Below are positions 1-22,411 of a DNA stretch of 64,000 nucleotides, one piece after another. The translations under genes and the position numbers were made by a program. This stretch comes from a virus. The stretch lies in IMG/VR virus record IMGVR_UViG_3300028027_000047, positions 1 to 64,000 of that record; one strand, written 5' to 3'. Under the pieces are notes generated by a model. It was not told the DNA's origin. It saw only the letters and a list, made by a program, of their open reading frames with translations, and did not search any database. Each line of letters begins with the position of its first letter. The first letter of the stretch is position 1.

Positions 1-153
1 GCAACTGGTCCACAAGGATTAAAAGGTGACACTGGCGCAACAGGCGCAACTGGTCCACAAGGATTAAAAGGTGACACTGGCGCAACAGGCGCAACTGGTC
101 CACAAGGATTAAAAGGTGACACTGGCGAAACAGGCGCAACTGGCCCACAAGGA
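1..153 (+). repeat. 45-bp tandem repeat (about 3.4 copies visible) encoding the collagen unit [15 protein letters not shown]
   Basis: gcaactggtccacaaggattaaaaggtgacactggcgcaacaggc recurs at 1, 46 and 91, with a partial copy at 136. Confidence 0.95.
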
Positions 154-1500
154 TCTAGCGGCACAGCTGCAACAGTAGCACTAGGATCAGTTACAACAGG
201 CTTAGCTGGATCTTCAGTGTCTATAACAAACTCTGGAACCACATCCGCGGCAATACTTAATTTTACAATTCCTCGTGGAGACACAGGGGCTTCGGGTACT
301 GGAGGATCAACGTTTTCTGGAACAACAGATTCTGTAACTGAAGGAACAGCAAATCTTTATTTTACAAATGAAAGAGCATCTGTTGCAAACAATCAAAGAT
401 TTACAGATGTTTATGTAAACATAAATCAGGCCACAGACGACTTGATGGCATACACAGCAAATAATTATGTAACAATATCAAATCTAGACAACAGATTAGG
501 TGGATATGTTATGGAAGCTGATGCGGATCTAGCGGGAGGGTATGCAAAAATTGGAGTTGCTAGCGGTAAGATATTAGACTCAGTTATTCCTACTACAATT
601 GCAAGAACCTCAGATATAACAGCAGCAATAGCAAATGTTGTAAATGCAGCACCAGACTCATTTGATACTCTTAAAGAAATTGCAGATTATATTTCTACAG
701 ATCAAACAGCTGCATCTTCATTAACTACATTAGTTGGAACTAAGCTTTCTTCTTCAACTGCCGCATCAACATATGCGCCACTTGCTTCACCAACATTTAC
801 TGGAACAGTTTCTGGTATTACAAAATCAATGGTAGGGCTTGGAAATGTGGATAACACTACAGATGCCTTAAAACCAATTTCCCAAGCTACTCAGACAGCA
901 TTAGATGCTAAATTAGCAGTAGCAACCGCATCAACAACATATGCGCCAAAAGCATCACCAACATTTACTGGAACAGTAGATTTTTCTGGTGCAGATGTAG
1001 TTCTAGGAGTACTACCAGCTCAAAGCTTTTCTTCCGTAGGTAAGTATTTAACAAGTAACGGTTCTCAGGCTTCTTGGTCTACAATAAACCTTGCAGACTA
1101 TGCAACTAAATTAAATCCAGTATTTTTGGGAACAGTAGACTTTACCAACGCAACAGTAACTGGAATACAGACTGGTGTGGCAGACAACTCAATAACATCA
1201 GCTAAAATTGCTGATGGAACAATTGTAGACAATGACATTAGCTCCTCAGCAGCAATAGATAAAACAAAAATTTATGGCACAGCGGTTACTAGAACAGACA
1301 TCGGTACAGTAGATAACGCTATGCTTGCTGGATCAATTGCAAATGCAAAGCTTGCAAATTCATCAATTACAATAAACGGAACCTCTGTTGCACTTGGAGG
1401 CTCAACAACAATTTCAGCAGGAGCAAAAACATTCTATAACAATACTGGCGCACTACCTGCTACGGGTATGGTTGCTGGAGATCTTTATATACAGTACTAG
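1..1500 (+). CDS. Collagen-like (Gly-X-Y) tail fibre/appendage protein, 5'-truncated by the window edge
   Basis: Frame 1 is open from base 1 ([15 protein letters not shown] repeats) into the 217..1500 ORF. It contains [24 protein letters not shown] and GLGNVDNT fibre motifs. Confidence 0.8.
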
Positions 1501-8707: not shown

Positions 8708-10285
8708 ATGGCAAAACACATAGGTAAGAAATCATCTGCACAAGATAACTTTGTTGGTCCAAATCCAGTGACTGGAGTTTCAGCATCAGATATAGGAACA
8801 GGACGGGCATACAATGATGGTGCAATTAGTGTTTCATGGACAGCGCCAGTAGGTGGAAATACCCCAACAGGATATAAGGTGTATGAGGGGGCCTCTGTAG
8901 TTGCTACAATTGCGTATGGAACAAATACTGCAACAATTACAGGGCTTGCTTCTGAATCAAGCCACACTTATTCTGTAGCATCATATGATTCATATAAAGA
9001 TAATAATACTAATGCAGTTGCTGCGTCAGCAGTAACTGCTACTACAGTTCCACAGGCACCATCAGTTTCTGCAACAGATGTTGGAACAGGTAGACCGTTT
9101 AATAATGGAGCAGCAACTGTTATAGTTACAGCAAATGCAACTGGAGGAAAAGCAATTTCAACATATGCAGCAACTCCAAACGGATTATCAGAAGTTACAG
9201 GTGCTTCAAGCACATTAACACCAACAGGAATGGCATCTGGAACAGGATATACATTTACTGGTAGAGTATCAAATGCAAATGGTTTTTCTGCAGCATCATC
9301 TGCAACAGCATCAATTACAATTACAACAGTTCCAGCTGCACCAACTGGATTATCTGCTGCAAATAATGGTCAAAATAATAACCGTGCATCTTGGACTGCG
9401 CCAGCAACTGGTGGGAAAGCAATTTCTAGCTACAATGTTTTTGATAATGGCGGCAATGCCCCAGACTCAATAAATACTGCAGGAACAACGGCTGACTTTA
9501 CAGGCCAGGCAGACAATTTTGGTTGGTACTTTAATGTCGAAGCTATAAATGCAAATGGAACTTCAGCAAGATCAACAAATTCAAGCACAATTACAACAAC
9601 GCCTTTTAGCTTTGTTCCATTTAGCTTTACGCCATTTGGCTTTACACCATTCGGCTTTACACCATTCGGCTTTACACCATTCGGCTTTACGCCATTTGGC
9701 TTTACACCATTCGGCTTTACACCATTCGGATTTACTCCATTTGGATTTACTCCATATGGGTTCTCTGGTGGTCTTTGCTTTAAATCACTTGGCGCAACAA
9801 CAATGGTACAGACAACAAATGGATTAGTAGCAGCTCACGATTTAGCAGTAGGAGACGTTCTTCTATCAGCAGATATTGAAACAATGCCTACAGAATTCCC
9901 TGGACCTCAGTCTGAATATCCAGACTGGTCTGTGGTTGATCCAACAGTAACACCAAAGACTACAACAATTACATCAATTGCAACTCGAAACTCTTCAACA
10001 ATTATAGTTGTAAATGGAGAGACATACGCAGACTCACACTACATATTTGTAAAAAGAGATGGCTTATCTAAGTTTGTAAATGTTAGCGAACTACTACTAA
10101 CAGACTTAGTCTTCTCTTCAGATACAAAAGAATGGGTTGAGGTTATACAGGTAGATGTAATTCCAAATGTATCTTACCCAGTAGTATGTATAAACACAGA
10201 GCCTTACGATGTATTTTATACCGAAAGATTCCTTGTTCACGATTCTTATACAATCGCCTCAGACAACCCAGTCGTAGGACAGTAA
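8708..10285 (+). CDS. FN3-repeat virion protein with a (PFGFT)n pentapeptide repeat and C-terminal Hint (intein/Hedgehog-like) domain
   Basis: Three FN3-like repeats and 11 P-[FY]-[GS]-F-[TVS] units. Hint blocks: A SLGATTMVQTTNG...DLAVGD, B YADSHYIFV, F/G VVCINTEPYDVFYTERFLVHDS. Confidence 0.8.
   Translation: MAKHIGKKSSAQDNFVGPNPVTGVSASDIGTGRAYNDGAISVSWTAPVGGNTPTGYKVYEGASVVATIAYGTNTATITGLASESSHTYSVASYDSYKDNNTNAVAASAVTATTVPQAPSVSATDVGTGRPFNNGAATVIVTANATGGKAISTYAATPNGLSEVTGASSTLTPTGMASGTGYTFTGRVSNANGFSAASSATASITITTVPAAPTGLSAANNGQNNNRASWTAPATGGKAISSYNVFDNGGNAPDSINTAGTTADFTGQADNFGWYFNVEAINANGTSARSTNSSTITTTPFSFVPFSFTPFGFTPFGFTPFGFTPFGFTPFGFTPFGFTPFGFTPFGFTPYGFSGGLCFKSLGATTMVQTTNGLVAAHDLAVGDVLLSADIETMPTEFPGPQSEYPDWSVVDPTVTPKTTTITSIATRNSSTIIVVNGETYADSHYIFVKRDGLSKFVNVSELLLTDLVFSSDTKEWVEVIQVDVIPNVSYPVVCINTEPYDVFYTERFLVHDSYTIASDNPVVGQ
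9602..9766 (+). repeat. 15-bp coding tandem repeat, 11 units (PFSFV, PFSFT, 8x PFGFT, PYGFS)
   Basis: ccatt[tc]gg[ca]tttac[agt] units vary mainly at synonymous positions. Confidence 0.95.
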
Positions 10286-10301
10286 TTAGAAAGTAAGGTT
10301 T

Positions 10302-10856
10302 ATGTCAGATACTTCTGAAAAACCATATGAAGTTATTGATGGAATGATATTTCCTAAAATCCAGGAGTACCCAAAAGAACTTGGGGATTCCTGGATACAG
10401 GTGACTAAATTTAGTAATGACTCAGCGATGTATGGGGTTATTTCTTTATATCTTGATAATAAGCATGATAAAGGAACAACTATTTTTTCGTCTTTTATCA
10501 GAAACAAGCACCCAGATGCATATATATCATTTCAACCAACTGGCAACGTAGATAGAGTTTATACCTCACCAGACCTTAGAAAAAAAGGAATCCTAGCAGC
10601 ACTCGGTGGTTATGGAAGAAATTTAATATTCTATCCTTATGAAAAAATATTGCTAGACCACTCTAGATCGTCTAGTCCAGCCGCAGATGAAACGCATGCA
10701 AGAGCAATAGGTAAAGCATTAGGCATTAACAATAAAGATGAGGTAAGAGAAACTAAACATTTTTTAAAACCACAGATTTTATATGAAGTAGAAAAGTCTC
10801 CACCGAGAGACGCCATATATCCGTGCATATGGGCAGAGAAAAGAATATGGGAATAA
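10302..10856 (+). CDS. Putative GNAT-fold acyltransferase
   Basis: VDRVYTSPDLRKKGILAAL resembles the GNAT acetyl-CoA-binding motif A. Confidence 0.45.
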   Translation: MSDTSEKPYEVIDGMIFPKIQEYPKELGDSWIQVTKFSNDSAMYGVISLYLDNKHDKGTTIFSSFIRNKHPDAYISFQPTGNVDRVYTSPDLRKKGILAALGGYGRNLIFYPYEKILLDHSRSSSPAADETHARAIGKALGINNKDEVRETKHFLKPQILYEVEKSPPRDAIYPCIWAEKRIWE

Positions 10857-10857
10857 G

Positions 10858-11427
10858 ATGATTAAGAATATTATTAACATAAATAATGATTTATTGAAAA
10901 AAGATATCAATATAATTTTTTCTCAAATGAATGAAAAGATGCATATAGGTTCAAATGGTCTGCTTGTAAAATATTCTTTTGATAAAGAGTATTCATTTTT
11001 TAACGAAGATCAGTTTAATATTTTTACTACCTATAACAAGCAAATAAACCATATTTATCAAAATATAGCAAAATGCTTAAAAGAGCTAAATTTAGAATCT
11101 AAATTAAATTCAGAAAAAAGCATGCAGCATATTACTGGCAATCTGTTTTATGCTCACAGGTCTTTTAAAACACATGAGTATGATTATGTTTCATCACTTC
11201 CTGGATGCTATTTTGGATTATATGTAATAGATTCTAACAATTCTACAATATATATTAATGATGAAGAAACAAATCTAAATGATAAAGACCTTCTAATAAT
11301 TAGTGGAAATAAAAAAATTAACTTTAAAGACTTAGGTGAAAACTTTAATGCAATTGAATTTTATATTATGCCACTACATTATTTAAACGGACAATATTAC
11401 CAAAAATGGTGTCCAGTTATATGCTAA
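10858..11427 (+). CDS. Degenerate paralog of the cupin/2OG-oxygenase-like proteins 14141..14791 and 15612..16247
   Basis: Shares the FN.F..Y...IY..I, F.G.Y and terminal Q.W.P motifs but lacks HDH...H. Confidence 0.55.
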   Translation: MIKNIININNDLLKKDINIIFSQMNEKMHIGSNGLLVKYSFDKEYSFFNEDQFNIFTTYNKQINHIYQNIAKCLKELNLESKLNSEKSMQHITGNLFYAHRSFKTHEYDYVSSLPGCYFGLYVIDSNNSTIYINDEETNLNDKDLLIISGNKKINFKDLGENFNAIEFYIMPLHYLNGQYYQKWCPVIC

Positions 11428-12014
11428 AAAAATCTAAAGAAAATTTTCATTTTAAATATATAAATATATTTAATATAGATAATTTGCAGAATATTGTAAA
11501 AAATATTACCTTTGACAAAAATCAATCAGAGTATGACAGAAGAGACAGTACCTTTTCTGGTGCTCTCGGCGGATCTAGAAATGTTTATGATAGCGTAACG
11601 CCAATAACTATAAATGAAACTAATTTAAGCTGGACATACGGAGAAGATATACACTCAGATCAAAAATGCGACATTGCCTTGGCAGAAGAGATAGATCCGA
11701 TAATTAAACATTTAGAAAAACATGTAAACGGCAAAGTTGCTGAAGTTTCTTTAAATAATTTAAAAGCAGGAAACAATATAATTGGTCACTACGACACAGG
11801 GGACTACTATGAATACATGAGAAGATTCCACATACCTCTAGAAACAAATCCAGATGTTGTTTTCCATATCGAAAAGTCCTCTGTAATGATGTCTATTGGA
11901 CAATGCTGGGAAGTTAATAATGCAAAATATCACTCTGTTCGAAATGATGGGGAGTATGATAGAATACACTTAGTAGTTGACATTATGCCAAATGAAGCCA
12001 TGAGAAAAGAATGA
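11421..12014 (+). CDS. Aspartyl/asparaginyl beta-hydroxylase-like 2OG-Fe(II) oxygenase
   Basis: HxD (IGHYD), RFHIPLETN, GQCWEVNNAKYHSVRN, DRIHLVVD. Confidence 0.85.
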   Translation: MLKKSKENFHFKYINIFNIDNLQNIVKNITFDKNQSEYDRRDSTFSGALGGSRNVYDSVTPITINETNLSWTYGEDIHSDQKCDIALAEEIDPIIKHLEKHVNGKVAEVSLNNLKAGNNIIGHYDTGDYYEYMRRFHIPLETNPDVVFHIEKSSVMMSIGQCWEVNNAKYHSVRNDGEYDRIHLVVDIMPNEAMRKE

Positions 12015-12015
12015 T

Positions 12016-12732
12016 ATGAAAAAAATAGAATTTTTCCCCAAGAGAAAAGATTTTGCCGAAGTCTTTCCCCAGCCAATACCAATTGTATCCTCAATGCCAT
12101 CCTGGTGGAAAACACAGCCATCTATTCTTGATAATAGCCAGAATCCAGTAAGTGGAGTTTTAAAGTTAACTGTAAAAAAATGCCAAGCAGTTTTTGATTC
12201 GATGACTGCGGGATACTACTTGCTATGCCCAGTAGATATTCATATAGATGCCACTGGGCCTAGGCTGCAAATTCAAATACCAATAAGTCAGTTTTCTCAA
12301 TATGGAGAAATAATAGCTCACCATACGCCAGAGCAAGTTGAAAAATATCCAAAAAAAGAATATTATCACCCTGAAGTGTTAAGGGTTCATCCAATGTGGC
12401 TAGTTCATACTCCTAAAAACTATAGCGCTCTATTTATCGAACCAATACACTCAGATGGAATACCCATACACTCTATTCCAGGAATTATTGATACAGATGC
12501 ATATATATCAGACGGGTACCTATCATTTTTTGTAGAAAAGGGTTTTAAGGGAACAATTAAGCAAGGAACACCAATAATTCAAGTCCTTCCATTTAAAAGA
12601 GATAGCTGGACAAGCTTCATTACAAAAGATAAAAATTCAGATAACACCATATTAAGCCAGCAATTAAAAGTAAGAACTGTTTTTCAAAATGGGTATAGGC
12701 TGAAGTTCTGGACAAAGAAAATATTTAAATAA
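12016..12732 (+). CDS. DUF6065-like protein (dUTPase-like fold), commonly found beside phage 2OG oxygenases
   Basis: MPSWWK, TVKKCQAVFDSMTAGY, W...TPKNYSALF..P, PGIIDTD, IKQGTPIIQVLPFKRDSW. Confidence 0.6.
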   Translation: MKKIEFFPKRKDFAEVFPQPIPIVSSMPSWWKTQPSILDNSQNPVSGVLKLTVKKCQAVFDSMTAGYYLLCPVDIHIDATGPRLQIQIPISQFSQYGEIIAHHTPEQVEKYPKKEYYHPEVLRVHPMWLVHTPKNYSALFIEPIHSDGIPIHSIPGIIDTDAYISDGYLSFFVEKGFKGTIKQGTPIIQVLPFKRDSWTSFITKDKNSDNTILSQQLKVRTVFQNGYRLKFWTKKIFK

Positions 12733-13373
12733 TGTTAGAGCAATCCCAGTCCTGGATTGAGATGCAAGATCTTAATTTTATTGATATATCTAGCAAGTCG
12801 CTACTTCCTCCAAAATGGAAAAACTGGTCTTTTGTTTTATCTGAGCATAAAGATGATCCTATTAAGCCAATCAACATGTATTCTGGAATATTTGGAGAAA
12901 GGCCGAAATTAATTTCAATTAAAGAAAACGTCATTACTTTAGAGCAGCACACCTACTCAGACATATACCTATTAATTAATTTTGATAAAAGCATATATGC
13001 AATAGATAAAGCACACCAAAGACAATTTTATATGTCTAGGAATAAATATAATATTGATAGTACTGGCATGCTGTCAAACCAATGCTTTAGAATGTTTATG
13101 CCATGGATAGTAGACTATAATGTGGACGCAAAGATTTACTCAGATAAACCAACATCGTTTAACATAATGCCAAAAGAAGTTAAGTTTTTTAAAAGAAACC
13201 CAGATCTGGATCAACAAGATACAGAGTTTATAGATTTTTATTTTACCAATAGCCCAGAGCACATGATTGAAAATGATTGTGGGATAATAGAAAAAGGATC
13301 TTACATTTATACAATTTCTTTTATAGCAGATGACATTCTTTTAAAACAAATACAGGAAATGTATGACAAATAA
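12732..13373 (+). CDS. Hypothetical protein, possibly a diverged DUF6065-like paralog
   Basis: Coupled ORF. FMPWIVD and GIIEKGSYIY echo the PW and IxKGTP motifs of its neighbours. Confidence 0.5.
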   Translation: MLEQSQSWIEMQDLNFIDISSKSLLPPKWKNWSFVLSEHKDDPIKPINMYSGIFGERPKLISIKENVITLEQHTYSDIYLLINFDKSIYAIDKAHQRQFYMSRNKYNIDSTGMLSNQCFRMFMPWIVDYNVDAKIYSDKPTSFNIMPKEVKFFKRNPDLDQQDTEFIDFYFTNSPEHMIENDCGIIEKGSYIYTISFIADDILLKQIQEMYDK

Positions 13374-14091
13374 ACTAAAAATTATTTTTAGCCCGTCAGC
13401 AATTGAGCTAAAGGACAGTCTCCTTCAACCAGAGCCAGCAATTAAATTTATTCCTGAGTGGTATAAAAAAATATCTAGATTTTATAAAAACAATACCATT
13501 TCCTCATTAAATCCAATTAACGACAGAGGAACAGATGGAAGCGCATCCTCGACCAAACTGTGTATGCCATTTTTTGATGCAATTACTTCTGGTTATATAT
13601 ATAGGCTGGACACAGATGTTGAAGTGTCTTTGGACGATAACGGGAAACCAATTTTAAATTGGGGCGGAGATGTAATGGTTTGCGATAAAAGATTGATGAT
13701 AGATGTCGCAGTACCGTACCAGCATCACCCAGTACATTTTGGATTTAAAATGCATTGGTATTATGAGACACCCCCAGGCTATTCTTTGTTGATTACACAC
13801 CCAATGAATAGACACGATCTTCCGTTTACTGTTCTGTCTGGAATTGTCGACTCAGACATATGGGGCTTGCCAGTGTTCATATCATTTTTTGTAAAAAGAA
13901 ATTTTGTTGGCATTATTCCAAAAGGGACCCCTTTATTCCAAATGATCCCAATTAAAAGGGATGAGTGGGAAATGGAAATAGATTACTCTGTAAAGAAACA
14001 TTTAATCAATAAGGTTGATGAAGAGAGAAGAAGATCTAAGATATTTGCATATTATAAAAGCCACGCCTGGAGAAGAAAGAAATACGAATAG
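13363..14091 (+). CDS. DUF6065-like protein, paralog of 12016..12732
   Basis: IPEWYK, TKLCMPFFDAITSGY, TPPGYSLLITHPMNR, GIVDSD, IPKGTPLFQMIPIKRDEW. Confidence 0.6.
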   Translation: MTNKLKIIFSPSAIELKDSLLQPEPAIKFIPEWYKKISRFYKNNTISSLNPINDRGTDGSASSTKLCMPFFDAITSGYIYRLDTDVEVSLDDNGKPILNWGGDVMVCDKRLMIDVAVPYQHHPVHFGFKMHWYYETPPGYSLLITHPMNRHDLPFTVLSGIVDSDIWGLPVFISFFVKRNFVGIIPKGTPLFQMIPIKRDEWEMEIDYSVKKHLINKVDEERRRSKIFAYYKSHAWRRKKYE

Positions 14092-14093
14092 CA

Positions 14094-14122
14094 TTGCAAT
14101 TATTTACATTAAATGCTAACAT
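14094..14122 (+). promoter_or_regulatory. Sigma-70-type promoter
   Basis: TTGCAA, 17-bp spacer, TAACAT with extended TG; AAGGAG SD downstream. Confidence 0.5.
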
Positions 14123-14140
14123 ATATATAAGGAGACTAAA

Positions 14141-14791
14141 ATGAATAATAATTATCAATTACCACCCCACCCAACAGGTGCAGAGCATAAATTTTTTGAA
14201 AGGTATTTAGACAATGACCTAGATTCTTTATCTGATTTCTTGCAAAAACAATACGGAAGAATTGAAAGGCGTGAGCTACCAGGAACTACTGCTGTTACTG
14301 AAAAAGATGCATGGCTATCTTCTTCAAGTGTTTCAACAATTAAGTGGACTGAGTATAATGTATTTCAGTTTTACGATAAGGGTATTTATAATTTATATAA
14401 AAACATTTCTGATGTCGTTAAAGAGGCTTGCGAATACTACAAAGTTAATTTTGAAGATCAGAAATATATGATCCAAGGATGGTTCAACATAAACCACAAC
14501 AAAAAAGGAAGATTGGATTGGCATGACCATGGAGGACCGTGGGCGCCATATTTTCACGGATACTATTGCGTAAAGGCTGAACCATCAACGACATGGTATA
14601 AAGTTTTTGACAAAGATGTTCCAAATGAAAATAAAGACAATAGACTTATTATATCTGAAATGGGTCATCCACATGCAATGCAAGACTGGGACTGGGAAGG
14701 CCCAAGAATAACAATAGCCTATGACATAGTTCCACTAAGCAATTTAATTGCAATAGACGCACAACCACAACATTGGATACCTTTGCTATAA
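14141..14791 (+). CDS. Cupin/2OG-Fe(II) oxygenase-like protein (HxH...H type)
   Basis: QGWFN...WHDH...FHGYYCV...HPHAM...RITIAYD double-stranded beta-helix pattern. Confidence 0.7.
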   Translation: MNNNYQLPPHPTGAEHKFFERYLDNDLDSLSDFLQKQYGRIERRELPGTTAVTEKDAWLSSSSVSTIKWTEYNVFQFYDKGIYNLYKNISDVVKEACEYYKVNFEDQKYMIQGWFNINHNKKGRLDWHDHGGPWAPYFHGYYCVKAEPSTTWYKVFDKDVPNENKDNRLIISEMGHPHAMQDWDWEGPRITIAYDIVPLSNLIAIDAQPQHWIPLL

Positions 14792-15612
14792 TGTCAACAA
14801 TTGCTTTATTTATATATAGTTTTCAAAATAACGATTTGATTAATGTCGTTAATGATATTATAAGTAAATCTAGCGGTAACAATATTATAGCGATTTCTAT
14901 AATAGATCAAAATTCAATAAACCATTATAAAAAATTTAATATAAGACAAAAAAATATTTATATGAATTATCAGCACAAAGTTTGGGACGCAATAGATAGC
15001 CCAATAAAATATAAAAAACATTTTTTAGATTCCATAAATACTGACTATGCAATGATATGTTCAGACGGAATTAATTTATGCGACCAGTGGGACATGGTCC
15101 TAATAGATAGCATAAATAAAAAAGATTTTATTTTGTCTGGCAATGCGATCAAATCTCTGGAGGTATATAATGATATGGTGTATAAAACACAATCAGTCTA
15201 TAGTGATGAATACGCTTTATCAAATAATATAGATAGGTCATTTATTTTTGGCAAAACAGAATTATTAAAAAAGATCGATTGGCCAGTGCAGCTAAAATAT
15301 TATGGAGAAGAAGAGGTTCTATATATGTCTTGTGTAAAAAATAATATACAAGTTCATAAGGTGCCCACTTATATCTATAAAGACAGCGGCAAAAAACTTA
15401 ACGAATACGACTATGTGCCATTTTCTTTAACCCATAAATACAACACTATAATAAAACAAATTGATGAATACAATATAAAAGACAATATTATATTTAATAA
15501 TTTAAAAGAAATAAAATATCAAAATGATGATGTAGAGTATGACCCGTTCGAATCAGATTTTAATAAAATTGCAGGAGAAAGATACTTAAATAAAACAAGG
15601 AGCATAGATTAA
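14791..15612 (+). CDS. GT60/GlcNAc-transferase-like glycosyltransferase (GT-A fold), with diverged catalytic motifs
   Basis: TIALFIYSF, IIDQ, DY..I.SD...WD..LI, FIFG and YYGEE match the order of Skp1 Hyp-GlcNAc transferase-family motifs. The canonical DSH reads CSD/SDG here. Confidence 0.55.
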   Translation: MSTIALFIYSFQNNDLINVVNDIISKSSGNNIIAISIIDQNSINHYKKFNIRQKNIYMNYQHKVWDAIDSPIKYKKHFLDSINTDYAMICSDGINLCDQWDMVLIDSINKKDFILSGNAIKSLEVYNDMVYKTQSVYSDEYALSNNIDRSFIFGKTELLKKIDWPVQLKYYGEEEVLYMSCVKNNIQVHKVPTYIYKDSGKKLNEYDYVPFSLTHKYNTIIKQIDEYNIKDNIIFNNLKEIKYQNDDVEYDPFESDFNKIAGERYLNKTRSID

Positions 15613-16247
15613 TGAGCATAGAGCATAGATTTTTTGAAAAACATTTAAACAATGACTTAGATTCATTGTATAATTTTTTAATGTCCAAAAAGGAAGATAT
15701 TAAAAATGAGTCATTAGAAGGAATAGATTTATCAAAAGCTCCCAAGCACTATTTTGAAAATTATAATCCGCAAAGAGTTGATTTCATGTTCAATGTATTC
15801 CAGTTCTATAATCCAGAGATATACAACCTGTATGTCGGCCTCAGAGATCTCACAAAAGAGGCTTGCCAACACTATGGCCTTGATTTTGAAAAAGAAAAGT
15901 TTATGATTCATGGATGGTTTAATTCAGATAACGGGAAAAAAGAGATTGACCTTAATAATGAAAACCTTTATCACGATCACTCTGGTGGTACTGGTGCGCC
16001 ATATTTTCATGGATATTACTGCGTAAAGGCTGAGCCATCAAGTACGTATTATAAAATAAATAGAGATAGGCCTTTTGAAAATATAAATATAAACAACCGT
16101 GCTATTATTTCTGAGACTGGGCACCCACATGCAATAGGGGTATGGGATCAGCCAGAACAAAGAGTTACAATTGCATATGATATAACACCGCTTTCAATGA
16201 TATCTGGCGGCGGTTACCCAGAACAAAGGTGGATACCACTAGCATGA
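15612..16247 (+). CDS. Cupin/2OG-Fe(II) oxygenase-like protein, paralog of 14141..14791
   Basis: EHRFFE..L.NDLDSL, FNVFQFY, YHDH, APYFHGYYCVKAEPS, GHPHA. Confidence 0.7.
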   Translation: MSIEHRFFEKHLNNDLDSLYNFLMSKKEDIKNESLEGIDLSKAPKHYFENYNPQRVDFMFNVFQFYNPEIYNLYVGLRDLTKEACQHYGLDFEKEKFMIHGWFNSDNGKKEIDLNNENLYHDHSGGTGAPYFHGYYCVKAEPSSTYYKINRDRPFENININNRAIISETGHPHAIGVWDQPEQRVTIAYDITPLSMISGGGYPEQRWIPLA

Positions 16248-16786
16248 AGATAAAAATAATTGAAGATTTTATTACTGATTACGACGCACATTCATTGATA
16301 TCTGAAATAAATAACCCATCATCCGTAAATGAATACCCAGACTACTATGCTGATAGAAATGGCGGAACGGCATTCCCATACAACAATACAGTGATAAGCA
16401 TACTTAGAAAGTATGCAAAGGAAGCTAATTTAATTCAAAAAGAATTTTTTGAAACAGACAGGGATGTAATAATTACTAAGTCTTTTGGTTCTGGATGGGG
16501 CCCAGGTATGAGCGGAAACCCACACATAGACGCAATAGAAAAAGAGCCTTTTATAGAATATAGCTCTGTAATATATCTTAATGATGGGTACACTGGAGGA
16601 GACATATACTTTCCAAAACAAAACTTTACGCATAGCCCTAAAAAGTACTCAGCAATATTTTTTCCAGGAAACGACTATGAGTATTTGCATGGTGTTTCAA
16701 AAATTGAAACTGGCAACAGGTACACAGCACTCTTTATGCAATCAACGCAAAAAGAATTTATGGATCCAGATTTTGAGGGATGTTAA
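16244..16786 (+). CDS. Prolyl-4-hydroxylase-like 2OG-Fe(II) oxygenase
   Basis: HID...YSSVIYLNDGYTGG.IYF...AIFFPG...YLHGV..IETGNRYT. Confidence 0.85.
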   Translation: MKIKIIEDFITDYDAHSLISEINNPSSVNEYPDYYADRNGGTAFPYNNTVISILRKYAKEANLIQKEFFETDRDVIITKSFGSGWGPGMSGNPHIDAIEKEPFIEYSSVIYLNDGYTGGDIYFPKQNFTHSPKKYSAIFFPGNDYEYLHGVSKIETGNRYTALFMQSTQKEFMDPDFEGC

Positions 16787-17439
16787 TGGAATTTAAACAG
16801 CTTGCATTGGGCGTAGTTCAGTATAATGGGATAATTAAAAGCCCACAACTTATTATTGATAAGATTGAAGATTTAGAAATAAAAAGACAGGAAGACCCTT
16901 CTTACAAATCAGAGTTTGTTAAAGAATGGACTGCCTGGGATTATGATCATGGCGGACCAGAGAAAACTGTTTTTTGCTGGCAAAAGTTTTTACCAAAACC
17001 AGAAGATATTAGTTTAGATGACAAGTTTTACAAAGAGCAACACTTCATATCGTCAGAGCTTTTTGGTTCTTTAGAAACAGCTCTAAAACATTACTTTACA
17101 ATTTACCCTTATGCTGAAAAAAATATTAAGGCTAGAGAAAAAACAATGCACGTTTTAAAGTACAAGGAAAGCGGATTCCTCCCAGCTCATTCTGACCACG
17201 GAATTAGCAGTAGGGTTTTATCTGCACTTCTTTATTTAAACGATGATTACGAAGGAGGGACGTTAAGGTTTCCACACCTTGGCCTTGAGCTAAAGCCACA
17301 GGCAGGCACAATATTGTTTTTCCCATCAAACTTTGTGTATGTCCATGAAGTAGATGCAGTTACTTCTGGCACAAGGTATTCCCTGCCAAATTGGTATCAT
17401 AATAGAAAGCACCCCTACTACTCAGATGGCACTGAGTAG
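16786..17439 (+). CDS. Prolyl-4-hydroxylase-like 2OG-Fe(II) oxygenase
   Basis: HSD...RVLSALLYLNDDYEGG.L.FP...KPQAG..LFFPSNFVYVHEV..VTSGTRYS. Confidence 0.9.
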   Translation: MEFKQLALGVVQYNGIIKSPQLIIDKIEDLEIKRQEDPSYKSEFVKEWTAWDYDHGGPEKTVFCWQKFLPKPEDISLDDKFYKEQHFISSELFGSLETALKHYFTIYPYAEKNIKAREKTMHVLKYKESGFLPAHSDHGISSRVLSALLYLNDDYEGGTLRFPHLGLELKPQAGTILFFPSNFVYVHEVDAVTSGTRYSLPNWYHNRKHPYYSDGTE

Positions 17440-17444
17440 TTTTA

Positions 17445-17453
17445 TGGTATAAT
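17445..17453 (+). promoter_or_regulatory. Extended -10 promoter, probably leaderless transcript
   Basis: TGGTATAAT lies 6 nt before ATG 17460; no SD. Confidence 0.6.
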
Positions 17454-17459
17454 TAAAAA

Positions 17460-18611
17460 ATGGCTACTACAGGTATAAACGGTTGGCACTTCCCAACATA
17501 CACGGACTCCCCAGACGTACCTAGAGATCTAGGTGTTCTTGGTGCAGATATAGCTGCATTTATTGCAGCAAACCCTGGACCACAAGGATCATCAGGACCA
17601 GCAAATGTTATAACGGTTGCTGCCACAAACACTATTGCTCCAGGACAAAATGCTTCAGTAACTATTAGCGGAACGTCCCCATCTCAATCATTAACATTTA
17701 ATATTCCAAGAGGTGTAGATGGCGTTTTAGGCGGACCAGGACCAGCAAACGTATTAAGTGTTGGAACCGTGGCATCAGGAGCTTCTGGAACACAACCGCA
17801 GGTAACTATAACAGGAACTGCCCCCTCTCAAACAATAAATTTTACAATTCCTCGTGGAGATACTGGATTGACTGGAATTACTGGCGCAACAGGCGCTACT
17901 GGTCCCAAAGGTGATGCGGCAGCAACAATAACAGTCGCTCCAACAGTCACAACATCAGCAGCTGGCACAAATGCGGAAGTAACAAATTCTGGAACATCTA
18001 GCGATGTAATTTTAAACTTTACAATACCTCGTGGAGCAGACGGATTGCCTGGAGCAGATGGAGCTCCTGGAGCTCCTGGAGCAACAGGACCAGCTGGAAC
18101 AAATGCAAACATTGATCCAATCGCTACAAGAATCTCATTAAACTTTTCAGCAACAGATCTTTCACCAGTTGGAGTTAATTCAAACTGGTTTCCACTGTCT
18201 AACAACACATTCACCTTGGGTCTCATGGGACCGCTAAACGCAGGACCCCCAGAGCAGCGTACAACAAGAGGCTGGAAAAATATATATTCGAATAACAGTG
18301 CCACAACAATTTCTGATGCAAGAACAAAAGAAAACATAGCCACATCAGATCTAGGGCTAGATTTTATAAATGATTTGCATCCTGTTAAATATAATAAAAT
18401 TGAAGGAAATAGAACACACTACGGTTTAATTGCACAAGAAGTCAAATCAGTAGTAGATGCTTCTGGGGTTGCCGATTTTGGTGGATGGCTAATATCTGAT
18501 GTTAATGATTTAGAAGGACAGCAAGCGCTAAGATATGAAGAGTTTATATCCCCATTAATTAAAGCGGTGCAAGAGCTTACAGCAAGAGTAAAAATACTAG
18601 AAGAGCAGTAG
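17460..18611 (+). CDS. Collagen-like tail fibre with a C-terminal intramolecular chaperone (peptidase S74)
   Basis: Gly-X-Y tracts and three NF.IPRG motifs; SDARTKENI...LGLDFINDLHPVKY...HYGLIAQEV...LIKAVQEL. Confidence 0.85.
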   Translation: MATTGINGWHFPTYTDSPDVPRDLGVLGADIAAFIAANPGPQGSSGPANVITVAATNTIAPGQNASVTISGTSPSQSLTFNIPRGVDGVLGGPGPANVLSVGTVASGASGTQPQVTITGTAPSQTINFTIPRGDTGLTGITGATGATGPKGDAAATITVAPTVTTSAAGTNAEVTNSGTSSDVILNFTIPRGADGLPGADGAPGAPGATGPAGTNANIDPIATRISLNFSATDLSPVGVNSNWFPLSNNTFTLGLMGPLNAGPPEQRTTRGWKNIYSNNSATTISDARTKENIATSDLGLDFINDLHPVKYNKIEGNRTHYGLIAQEVKSVVDASGVADFGGWLISDVNDLEGQQALRYEEFISPLIKAVQELTARVKILEEQ

Positions 18612-20486: not shown

Positions 20487-20825
20487 ATGGATATCTTAAA
20501 TAAAAATACCAGGATTGTTGAAGAGACAACCCTAGGAATCTATGTGTGGGAAATGCCTGATGGCAGATGGATTGGGGATGACGATGGCAATTTTCTTTCG
20601 ATCACATCAATCAAAGGCAATAGATCCAGAATCGATGCTTTGGCTAGAGAAGTTCGCTCATACGGTATTCATGAGGGCCAGCCTAAATTCCTTTCTGGGA
20701 GAAGAAAGATCAATGACGAAGAGCTTGAAGAGCAAGAACAAAGACTTAGATGGGGACTCCCCCCAGATCCATACGACATAGGAGTTTACAAGGACTCTGT
20801 ATCAAGAGGCGGTAAAGTGCAATGA
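20487..20825 (+). CDS. Hypothetical protein upstream of the portal
   Basis: ATGA overlap with the portal gene. Confidence 0.7.
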   Translation: MDILNKNTRIVEETTLGIYVWEMPDGRWIGDDDGNFLSITSIKGNRSRIDALAREVRSYGIHEGQPKFLSGRRKINDEELEEQEQRLRWGLPPDPYDIGVYKDSVSRGGKVQ

Positions 20826-22411
20826 CACGTAATATAGAAGTTTTAGAAGATGATGAGTCATCTAATACAATTGATATTTCAAATACATCTGACTGGTTTC
20901 ATTTTCAAAAAGCAGAAGAATCTGAAGACCCATTTAAAATGGGACTAGAAGAAATTAAAAAGCTTAGAGGTTTAGGAACAAACTTTAAACGCAAAATCAA
21001 CCGTGATTTTTCAAAAGCATTTGTTGGAAAAGATGACGCTGGTACTCAACAAAATCTTTTGCAGCAAGCAATTAGCGGATATGCATTATTTGATCTTGTA
21101 GAACCAACCTATAACCTAGAATACCTTTCAAAAATTTATGAGGTTTCAACATATAACTACGCAGCAATTAATGCCAAGGTTTCAAATATTGTTGGTCTAG
21201 GATATATGTTTACGGAGACATCAAAAGCAAAAGATGCAATGGATGCCATAACCGATCAAAAGCAGGTCGACAGAGCACGTGCAAAAATTGATAGAATTAA
21301 AACACAGCTAGATCGCTGGCTTGATGATTGCAACGAAGAAGAGTCATTTACAGAGACCCTTATAAAGGCCTACACGGACCTTGAGGCGACTGGAAACGGC
21401 TACATAGAGATTGGACGTACAACTGCTGGAGACATAGGCTACATAGGCCACATACCAGCCAAGACAATGCGTGTACGCAGATTCCGTGATGGATTTATTC
21501 AATTGCTTTATGGCAAGGCGGTTTACTTCCGCAATTTTGGAGACCTTGAAACACCAAGCCCAATTGCTGGTCAAGAAGATCGACCAAATGAAATTATACA
21601 TTTAAAGAAATACACTCCAATGAATAACTACTACGGAGTCCCAGATATTATTGCAGCACAACAAGCGCTGGCAGGAAACGAATTTGCTGGAAGATACAAC
21701 TTAGACTACTTTGAAAACAAGGCGGTCCCAAGATATATTATTACAGTAAAGGGAGCAAAGCTTTCACCAGAGTCAGAAAGAAAATTGCTTGAGTTTTTCC
21801 AGGTTGGACTAAAAGGCAAGAATCACAGATCCCTCTATATCCCACTTCCAGCCGATACACCAGACTCAAAGACTGAATTTAAGATGGAGCCAATTGAAGC
21901 AGGAGAGCAAGAGTCTTCATTTAATATCTATCGTAAGTCTAATAGAGATGAAATTCTATTGGCTCACCGTGTTCCAATTAGCAAGATCGGTATCCCAGAG
22001 GGAGTTAACCTAGCAGCTGCCAGAGATGCAGATAAAACATTTAAAGAGCAGGTTTGTAGACCATCACAAGACAGACTTGAAAAGAAATTAAATTATTTAA
22101 TTGCAGAAAAAACAGATGTTGTACAATTAAAATTCAACGAGCTTAGCCTTACTGATGAAGAGACTCAAAGCCGTATTGATGAAATTTATTTAAGAATGCA
22201 GGTAATAACTCCAAACGAAGTTCGTATTAGAAAGAATATGACAACCGTTGACGGCGGGGACGAAATGGTAGATTTAAAGCCGCAGCAGGTGGCTGACCAG
22301 AAAGCAAAATCCACTGGAAATAAAAAGCGAGATCAGCAAAGATCCGCTAATGCCCCAGATAAAAGCGGAGAAGCCAGAAACCCCAAGGGCGATGGTCCAA
22401 AAGTCAAATAA
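20822..22411 (+). CDS. Portal protein
   Basis: DLEATGNGYIEI, EIIHLK...YYGVP, YFENKAVP, ITPNEVR (HK97/PBSX-type portal). Confidence 0.93.
   Translation: MTRNIEVLEDDESSNTIDISNTSDWFHFQKAEESEDPFKMGLEEIKKLRGLGTNFKRKINRDFSKAFVGKDDAGTQQNLLQQAISGYALFDLVEPTYNLEYLSKIYEVSTYNYAAINAKVSNIVGLGYMFTETSKAKDAMDAITDQKQVDRARAKIDRIKTQLDRWLDDCNEEESFTETLIKAYTDLEATGNGYIEIGRTTAGDIGYIGHIPAKTMRVRRFRDGFIQLLYGKAVYFRNFGDLETPSPIAGQEDRPNEIIHLKKYTPMNNYYGVPDIIAAQQALAGNEFAGRYNLDYFENKAVPRYIITVKGAKLSPESERKLLEFFQVGLKGKNHRSLYIPLPADTPDSKTEFKMEPIEAGEQESSFNIYRKSNRDEILLAHRVPISKIGIPEGVNLAAARDADKTFKEQVCRPSQDRLEKKLNYLIAEKTDVVQLKFNELSLTDEETQSRIDEIYLRMQVITPNEVRIRKNMTTVDGGDEMVDLKPQQVADQKAKSTGNKKRDQQRSANAPDKSGEARNPKGDGPKVK

Follow-up and report, generated by a model that had tools for sequence, protein, structure and literature searches.

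A Hint-capped repeat protein and its downstream enzyme block

We analysed a stretch of viral DNA of 64,000 nucleotides (hereafter the window: the first 64 kb of IMG/VR virus record IMGVR_UViG_3300028027_000047, a 116,220-bp record with direct terminal repeats) and found that, within a late-gene run on the + strand, it encodes a repeat protein capped by a C-terminal Hint domain (open reading frame [ORF] 8708-10285) and, directly downstream, an intact block of eleven genes that includes prolyl-hydroxylase-type 2-oxoglutarate (2OG)-Fe(II) oxygenases. The adjacency of such repeat-Hint genes to members of this enzyme island was conserved across more than 200 viral contigs. The reading that we favour, tentatively and with slightly more doubt than confidence, is that the Hint-capped repeat is cleaved, that the eleven genes are a companion block co-expressed with ORF 8708, and that the repeat is the substrate of the hydroxylases in that block.

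An earlier annotation made from the DNA letters alone (the original prediction) had described ORF 8708 as an FN3 protein in which eleven Pro/Phe-rich pentapeptide repeats abut a Hint domain, and this architecture stood. Pfam called fn3 (E 4.5e-11) as the sole domain of the product, the repeats occupy residues 298-352, and the seven residues SGGLCFK separate them from the start of the Hint domain at Ser360. Such a product would be a fibre-module virion protein in which three FN3-type domains are followed by a hydrophobic (TPFGF)x11 linker and then by the C-terminal Hint domain. At the DNA level the repeats correspond to a 15-nt tandem array at positions 9599-9755 (10.5 copies, 88% matches by Tandem Repeats Finder). 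A search with the C-terminal part of the protein recovered more than 150 homologues, mostly FN3 proteins of 420-470 residues, on viral contigs of up to 105-116 kb, and the repeat was kept among the 22 homologues that we aligned. The likeness to the clusters of ribosomally synthesized and post-translationally modified peptides that the original prediction had drawn did not hold up, as the repeat belongs to a 525-residue virion-type FN3 protein and not to a small leader-plus-core precursor.

Fold, residues and expected activity of the Hint domain

Pfam called no Hint domain on the ORF 8708 product. Evidence for one came from an alignment of 41 C-terminal modules (A2), which was used for profile searches, for an AlphaFold2 (AF2) model and for a scan of protein clusters. 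Against the PDB the A2 profile matched the gp41-1 intein (E 4.4e-7), the cysteine-less Ser1 Aes123 PolB1 intein (1.8e-6), the Clostridium thermocellum BIL domain (6e-5) and Tetrahymena BIL2 (3e-4), with Ser360 aligned to intein residue 1, YSxSH to TADH and LVHD to the terminal HN. The AF2 model reached a predicted local distance difference test score (pLDDT) of 87 and a predicted template-modelling score (pTM) of 0.82. Foldseek returned 47 PDB matches at E<=1e-3 (4e-8 for BIL2), each listed match being an intein, a BIL or a hedgehog Hint domain, and VIA-align gave Z scores of 14-19 overall, with 18.8 for BIL2 (root-mean-square deviation [rmsd] 1.7 Å over 135 residues), 17.9 for the C. thermocellum BIL domain and 17.0 for hedgehog; in the structural pairing, model residues 14..166 (Ser360..Asp512) lay on intein residues 1..end. 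Relatives with Cys at position 1 had correctly positioned, sub-threshold Pfam matches to Hint_2, Intein_splicing, Hint and PT-HINT. On these profile and model comparisons, the C-terminal domain of the ORF 8708 product is very probably a Hint domain.

Across the 22 aligned homologues (31-83% identical to the window protein), K359, S360, G362, A363, T365, H444, E498, P499, D501 and D512 were invariant and H511 and S513 nearly so. The nucleophile position is Ser360 in the window and Cys in a distant clade ending in LVHNK, whose members carry xC[IV]xxDTLIxTPxGL..AKD..VGD as block A and LVHNK followed by the stop, that is, canonical blocks A and G. In block B the invariant His444 pairs with the His of TxxH in the Aes123 PolB1 intein, and in place of the Thr the window has Ala (ADSH) and most relatives have Ser. 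The block F Asp is Asp501, and the domain ends in His511-Asp512: the penultimate His of block G is present and the terminal Asn is absent, with HN, HD, YD, FD and YN all occurring as terminal dipeptides across relatives. The window domain thus departs from the canon at three positions: the Cys is replaced by Ser, the block B Thr by Ala and the terminal Asn by Asp. That it is active despite Ser1 and the terminal Asp is assumed from Ser1 inteins and from inteins with a C-terminal Asp.

The original prediction also held that Hint autoprocessing would expose the repeat, and the domain does carry the residues of N-terminal autocleavage; a new C-terminus at the repeat end is therefore the expected product. 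By analogy with established Hint chemistry, cleavage at Lys359/Ser360, leaving the repeat at a new C-terminus, appears reasonably likely. Ser360 would attack the Lys359 carbonyl in an N-to-O acyl shift aided by His444 and Asp501, the resulting ester would be resolved by water or another nucleophile, and release of the Hint cap would leave an FN3 body terminating in the repeat plus SGGLCFK. Cys357 was considered as the nucleophile and rejected, being restricted to the window's small clade and three residues out of register. A canonical mobile splicing intein was likewise rejected, because the domain is C-terminal (with a 13-residue tail in the window) and fixed throughout a large family, many members of which have a 'C-extein' of one residue.

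Two side observations concern the tail and the copy number of these genes. Near relatives mostly have a conserved tail of ~45 residues after His-Asp-Ser (consensus ...SLExLYQQWKxSQ...; for example L005:10727-11371 and L012:10667-11302), as against 13 residues in the window, and this longer tail could be a C-extein or a region like that which recognises adducts. Many related genomes also have a second repeat+Hint gene on a different body (PASTA-containing, 330-970 residues; for example L005:3159-5912, L022:4050-5093 and L058:2601-3530), usually with no enzyme gene adjacent; the window's own genome has a single copy.

Breadth of the repeat-Hint module

When 1.84 billion cluster representatives were scanned with A2, 2,721 matched at E<=1e-3, of which 826 reached E<=1e-10. 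Among the best 147, the Hint domain was almost always at the extreme C-terminus and preceded by a low-complexity run (PFGFT, GAFGAF, PFFPP, poly-Pro, GPPxGPP or Gly runs), and many members ended one residue after His-Asn. The N-terminal bodies varied and included FN3, PASTA and long proteins of unknown type. Some distant members (P0199, P0218, P0226, P0232, P0239, P0243 and P0255) consist of 3-9 tandem Hint domains with LVHNKGGGGCF junctions between them and a hydrophobic N-terminal segment.

Cultured phages yielded distant Hint members only, in Dickeya phage AD1, the Erwinia pEa_SNUABM phages and Phage NCTB, the last of which has three 'intein domain' genes (BN7874_136, _135 and _132) in its fibre block. 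Among 50,697 cultured-phage records, the 8.7-kb region containing ORF 8708 and the island had no megablast match and the FN3-repeat-Hint protein no tblastn match. Literature searches returned no published description of repeat-Hint virion proteins or of DUF6065.

Adjacency of island families to Hint genes

To the co-occurrence that the original prediction had suggested looking for, 226 viral loci bear witness: 77 found with the whole protein family, 80 from a clade with a Pro-rich linker and the C-terminal ending MLTHDS, and 69 of the Cys1/LVHNK, PFFP type, all searched with hidden Markov models (HMMs) of every island family. Downstream sequence of 1.5 kb or more was available for 150 distinct Hint genes, and 127 of them had an island-family gene within 700 nt downstream on the same strand; within the window's phage group, then, the island was not found to occur independently of Hint genes. 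Seven different families filled the first position after the Hint gene: the 10302 family in 59 cases, 16780 in 37, phrog_7084 in 14, 14141 in 7, 14773 in 5, the AspH-like family in 4 and 16229 in 1. We take the pairing of Hint gene and island to be real because the adjacency holds across several different gene orders. Sets ranged from a minimum of a Hint gene with a 10302-type and a 14141-type gene to 10-11 paralogous prolyl-4-hydroxylase (P4H)-like genes directly after a Hint gene with a PFFP linker (L159, L160, L162, L164, L168-L170 and L193). The 23 Hint genes with no island neighbour were mostly second Hint genes of the same genomes.

Composition of the eleven-gene island

As the original prediction had it, the eleven genes are tightly coupled: they run co-oriented from 10302 to 17439 with overlaps or gaps of at most 49 nt, and the first begins 16 nt after the Hint gene (Table 1). 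The + strand has no terminator-like site between 8708 and 17417 save a weak one at 11729. As separate observations, the island is AT-rich (31-34% GC over positions 10000-16000 versus ~41% in the fibre genes just upstream), and the hairpin region at its end (17417-17453) shares sequence with a promoter-like site that has an extended -10 and lies immediately 5' of fibre gene 17460.

Table 1. Features of the repeat-Hint locus and its flanks (positions are those of the window)
Feature	Position	Strand	Basis or remark
Collagen-like ORF	1-1497		
FN3-repeat-Hint protein, 525 aa, fibre-module gene	8708..10285	+	ORF, Pfam fn3, homologue family
11 pentapeptide repeats, residues 298-352	9599..9763	+	TPFSF, VPFSF, 8 x TPFGF, TPYGF
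Predicted Hint domain, Ser360 to Asp512, ~153 residues	9785..10243	+	Profile, AF2, Foldseek, VIA
13-residue tail after Hint, first residue Ser513 (+1 position)	10244..10282	+	Translation
Unknown-fold family protein (A6/A9)	10302..10856	+	Commonest gene directly 3' of repeat-Hint genes
Divergent A3-family paralogue of 14141/15612, without WHDH motif	10858..11427	+	blastp E 3e-5 to 14141
Asp/Asn beta-hydroxylase-type oxygenase	11406..12014	+	Pfam PF05118 (Asp_Arg_Hydrox), 47.9 bits vs cut-off 22.6
phrog_7084 protein (DUF6065-like), copy 1	12016..12732	+	PHROG E 9.5e-42; paralogue of 13363
Conserved protein of unknown family (A7)	12732..13373	+	Homologues in 31 loci
phrog_7084 protein (DUF6065-like), copy 2	13363..14091	+	PHROG E 3.7e-39
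A3-family protein with WHDHGG and GHPH motifs	14141..14791	+	48% identical to 15612
GT60-like (PF11397 'GlcNAc') candidate glycosyltransferase	14773..15612	+	Homologue matches
A3-family protein, paralogue of 14141	15612..16247	+	blastp E 2e-58
Prolyl-hydroxylase-type 2OG-Fe(II) oxygenase	16229..16786	+	phrog_61 E 2.1e-14; aligns with 16780
Prolyl-hydroxylase-type 2OG-Fe(II) oxygenase	16780..17439	+	Pfam PF13640 (2OG-FeII_Oxy_3), 59.5 bits vs cut-off 27
Terminator-like hairpin at block end, 9-pair stem + T-rich tail	17417..17440	+	Consensus-level match only
Collagen-like fibre ORF with Peptidase_S74 chaperone	17460-18611		Pfam E 1.5e-12 (S74)
Portal	20822-22411		

The calls for the hydroxylase-like enzymes were upheld. 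Both proposed P4H-like enzymes were recognised, 16780 by Pfam and 16229 by its PHROG match only, and in the family alignment A12, which includes 16229, H137, D139 and H189 were invariant and R199 nearly so, the HxD...H...R pattern being kept in both. Searched against the PDB, the P4H-like profile matched human P3H1 (1e-10), Bacillus anthracis P4H (3e-9), PBCV-1 P4H (5C5T; 1.3e-5), PHD2 (~1e-5) and Tet-like enzymes (4e-4), so that its nearest solved relatives, as judged by profile resemblance, are peptidyl-prolyl hydroxylases. The 16229 and 16780 proteins are 90-93% identical to their counterparts in locus L005 (16780 at 93%), at ~76% nucleotide identity, which argues for strong purifying selection on the P4H-like genes; the Hint proteins of the two loci are only 49% identical. 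The Asp/Asn-hydroxylase-like enzyme 11406 also scored above its Pfam cut-off; among near relatives its family occurs in the window and L002 only, and in another clade it lies directly 3' of Hint genes.

Other assignments fared less evenly. Of the two or three DUF6065-like proteins proposed, 12016 and 13363 are paralogues within phrog_7084, the DUF6065 label itself (PF19541) fell below its cut-off of 26.6 bits (13363 at 19.5-20 bits, 12016 no match), and the third, 12732, had no family match in Pfam or PHROG scans and was unsupported as a relative (hhalign probability of 6% to A4). The three supposed cupin/2OG proteins (10858, 14141 and 15612) are indeed paralogues; their fold, however, rests on a language-model lead, the neighbours of the 14141 family carrying PF13759 (2OG-FeII_Oxy_5), and the HMM tests were negative: PF13759 matched 0/39 family members and missed these ORFs in a genome search, and hhalign of the 14141 family to the P4H-like profile gave a probability of 0.3%. 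A 2OG-FeII_Oxy_5-like fold for 14141, a protein ~70% identical across relatives, is possible. The pairing of P4H with GT60 stood to the extent that P4H-type and GT60-like genes lie in one block, the GT60 part being sub-threshold and seen in homologues only: 6/16 homologues of 14773 matched PF11397 (best E 9.7e-5) and the window protein itself did not.

The GNAT-like call for 10302 was not established. The protein had no Pfam or PHROG match, and its family conserves a motif-A-like R-x-Y-T-x-P-x-x-R-[RK]-x-G. Against GNAT models 3+2+1 of 30 family members gave weak matches (E>=0.012), the GNAT model PF13508 had no match in the genome, the AF2 model of the family was of low confidence (pLDDT 41), and the A9 profile run against a set of 5.8 billion proteins found its own family only and no Pfam domains. 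The acylation (+42) idea depends on that unconfirmed GNAT call. Solved-structure profile searches with island alignments A3, A4, A5 and A9 gave no match, and hhalign detected no relationship among the island families.

Covariation of the repeat with the enzymes

The original prediction had further asked whether repeat sequence and enzyme set covary; covariation was seen in raw counts and lost once relatedness was controlled. The number of Pro residues in the 40 residues before the Hint domain correlated with the number of P4H-like genes within 9 kb downstream (Spearman rho 0.50, n=124), and a P4H-like gene followed 0/15 Pro-free linkers (GAFGAF or GHGYGGF types) versus 75/109 of the others. 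Independent-pairs tests on the Hint tree removed the correlation: 12 independent pairs differed in Pro-richness and P4H presence was unchanged in ~10.6 of them, while the comparison of Pro-free linkers with the rest yielded four independent pairs (1.2 in the same direction, 0 opposite), too few for a test. The covariation is at most compatible with the hypothesis. The collagen-like fibres that the original prediction had offered as substrates received no support, because collagen-like ORFs were equally frequent in loci with P4H-like genes (71/157, 45%) and without them (32/69, 46%); the 17460 fibre, moreover, was found in only 6/77 near loci.

Weighing the favoured reading against its rivals

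On the favoured reading the eleven genes would form a dedicated block probably co-expressed with ORF 8708, its two P4H-type oxygenases would, as their gene position suggests, most likely hydroxylate the repeat prolines, and the GT60-like enzyme may add a sugar to hydroxyproline or Thr. A more far-reaching version, in which many uncultured freshwater phages have a dedicated tailoring pathway for their virions and a low-complexity Pro/Phe/Gly repeat is hydroxylated and sometimes glycosylated by fast-diversifying adjacent oxygenases, with the Hint domain then removing itself and possibly ligating the tailored repeat to another molecule through a Hedgehog/cholesterol-like ester, we consider unlikely. 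Several observations weigh against the favoured reading. The loss of the Pro/P4H correlation in independent pairs is one, and the Ala and Asp that replace the block B Thr and terminal Asn in the window Hint are another. Where a genome has a second Hint gene, that copy usually has no enzyme gene beside it, and no oxygenase lies within 9 kb of the Hint-capped tail genes of jumbo phages. P4H-like genes are common in cyanophages, in whose records two members of the window Hint family had no tblastn match. Four island families are without an established fold, and, because all loci come from related uncultured phages, the conserved synteny partly reflects shared ancestry.

Shared ancestry is the core of a rather unlikely alternative, in which the island occupies a hypervariable late-gene slot extending from the fibre genes to the portal, its enzymes act on virion proteins other than the repeat, for instance the collagen-like or Ala-rich fibres, and the adjacency to Hint genes is inherited. 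In most near relatives the island does have fibre genes on one side and the o20478/portal pair on the other, the window encodes two collagen-like proteins, the solved relatives nearest to the P4H-like profile include collagen P3H1 and P4H, and the independent-pairs test showed no covariation with the repeat. Yet the adjacency persists in clades with a different gene order and no portal nearby, some second Hint genes also precede a P4H-like gene, and the frequency of collagen-like ORFs and the rarity of the 17460 fibre given above speak against the collagen-like fibres as targets. That the oxygenases are instead auxiliary or host-directed, acting on host proteins, nucleic acids or small molecules, we regard as improbable. 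In cultured phages the 16780 family has 275 matches, most of them from cyanophages, that bear the annotations 2OG oxygenase, PiuC or ferrochelatase, and such a role would also accord with weak Tet_JBP and Tet-like matches and with further weak 2OG-like matches elsewhere in the genome; the block, however, sits inside a structural module immediately after the Hint gene with no strong terminator-like site between, its adjacency to Hint genes is conserved, and among solved structures peptidyl-prolyl hydroxylases match best, Tet-like enzymes having E-values ~10^6-fold weaker.

The remaining alternatives concern the Hint domain itself, which might be catalytically dead and serve as a structural cap or folding aid, or might splice fully and join the repeat to the 13-residue tail; both together seem quite unlikely. 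The non-canonical ADSH and His-Asp-Ser, the drift of the C-terminal motif to YD, FD and YN in the family, and the near-invariance in close relatives of Ser513 at +1, like a splicing nucleophile, would fit them. Set against this are the invariance of Ser360, His444, Asp501 and Asp512 and the near-invariance of His511 over the 22 homologues, and the presence of a solved Ser1 cysteine-less intein among the best matches; splicing, moreover, cannot be the general reaction of the family, because many members end one residue after His-Asn.

Genomic setting

Upstream of ORF 8708 lie a collagen-like ORF and then the Ala-rich fibre proteins 4362 and 6458, the latter with an Mtd_N domain, and downstream of the island come the second collagen-like neighbour, a fibre with Peptidase_S74, a Laminin_G_3 protein and the portal; both collagen-like neighbours named in the original prediction are therefore present. 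With its counterparts in large (~130-kb) Streptomyces siphophages the portal shares 56% identity; the window has a GC content of ~38%, and near-identical DNA is present in metagenomes of many studies, from freshwater, lakes and the subsurface. A Streptomyces-type portal combined with such a GC content and freshwater/lake occurrence suggests low-GC freshwater actinobacteria as hosts. Three weak 2OG-FeII_Oxy_5-like matches lie elsewhere in the genome, outside the window (G000:C1:67163-67240, 88862-88972 and 89875-89970), and the phage may therefore carry further oxygenases beyond the island.

Comparison with known systems

The closest parallels are the BIL domains (C. thermocellum, 2LWY; Tetrahymena BUBL BIL2, 6Y75), with which the window domain shares the Hint fold (Z 17.9-18.8, rmsd 1.7 Å), recognisable blocks A, B, F and G, autocleavage as the expected reaction, and its status as a fixed domain of a variable, non-housekeeping protein and not a mobile insertion. 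Unlike BIL domains, it has Ser1 and a terminal His-Asp and stands at the extreme C-terminus of a phage fibre-module protein, and its type nearly always has a P/F/G-rich repeat before it and oxygenase genes after it. Hedgehog (1AT0) also has a C-terminal Hint domain (Z 17.0). The Hog Hint domain frees the N-terminal body by forming an ester or thioester, which is open to resolution by a second nucleophile. The ~45-residue tail of the window's relatives is reminiscent of the adduct-recognition region of Hog, a resemblance only, whereas the window protein has no sterol-recognition region and a tail of only 13 residues.

Among phage proteins, the endosialidase-type intramolecular chaperone Peptidase_S74 is a C-terminal fibre or spike domain that cuts itself off after folding. 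The Hint domain would share with it, and thus with the neighbouring fibre 17460, the character of a disposable C-terminal cap, as a functional analogy only, the fold and chemistry being unrelated. The Hint-capped tail proteins of jumbo phages (Dickeya AD1 gp108, Erwinia pEa_SNUABM and NCTB) have a homologous C-terminal Hint domain within a baseplate/fibre module, 26-33% identical to a Cys1 relative of the window domain; unlike the window protein, they combine Cys1 and His-Asn with an N-terminal part that is collagen-like, and their linker is a short Gly/Ser stretch that lacks any aromatic repeat.

With the protist Skp1 pathway (P4H1 and the GT60 GlcNAc-transferase Gnt1) the window shares a P4H-type oxygenase and a PF11397-like gene in one block, and differs in that its GT60 membership is sub-threshold. 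In the chlorovirus PBCV-1, a prolyl 4-hydroxylase hydroxylates the virus's own Pro-rich repeat protein; unlike those repeats, the window repeat is rich in Phe and Gly and has a single Pro in each five residues. Nup98/Nup145 has FG-type repeats followed by a Ser-nucleophile self-cleaving C-terminal domain. Its likeness to the window protein is one of layout and a lead only, the cleaving fold being different and the sequences unrelated.

Significance

Many 2OG-Fe(II) oxygenases are encoded by phages, and they are usually classed as auxiliary metabolic genes without a known substrate. The oxygenases described here are linked by their location to a single type of virion gene, and the short TPFGF peptide is therefore a concrete candidate substrate. 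The module is large, with 2,721 cluster representatives, and the window phage is present in metagenomes from many freshwater and lake studies. Capping fibre proteins with a C-terminal Hint domain would give phages a second route, chemically distinct, to what the S74 chaperone achieves; the tailoring reading, if true, would assign a structural substrate to the 'orphan' 2OG oxygenases that abound in phages.

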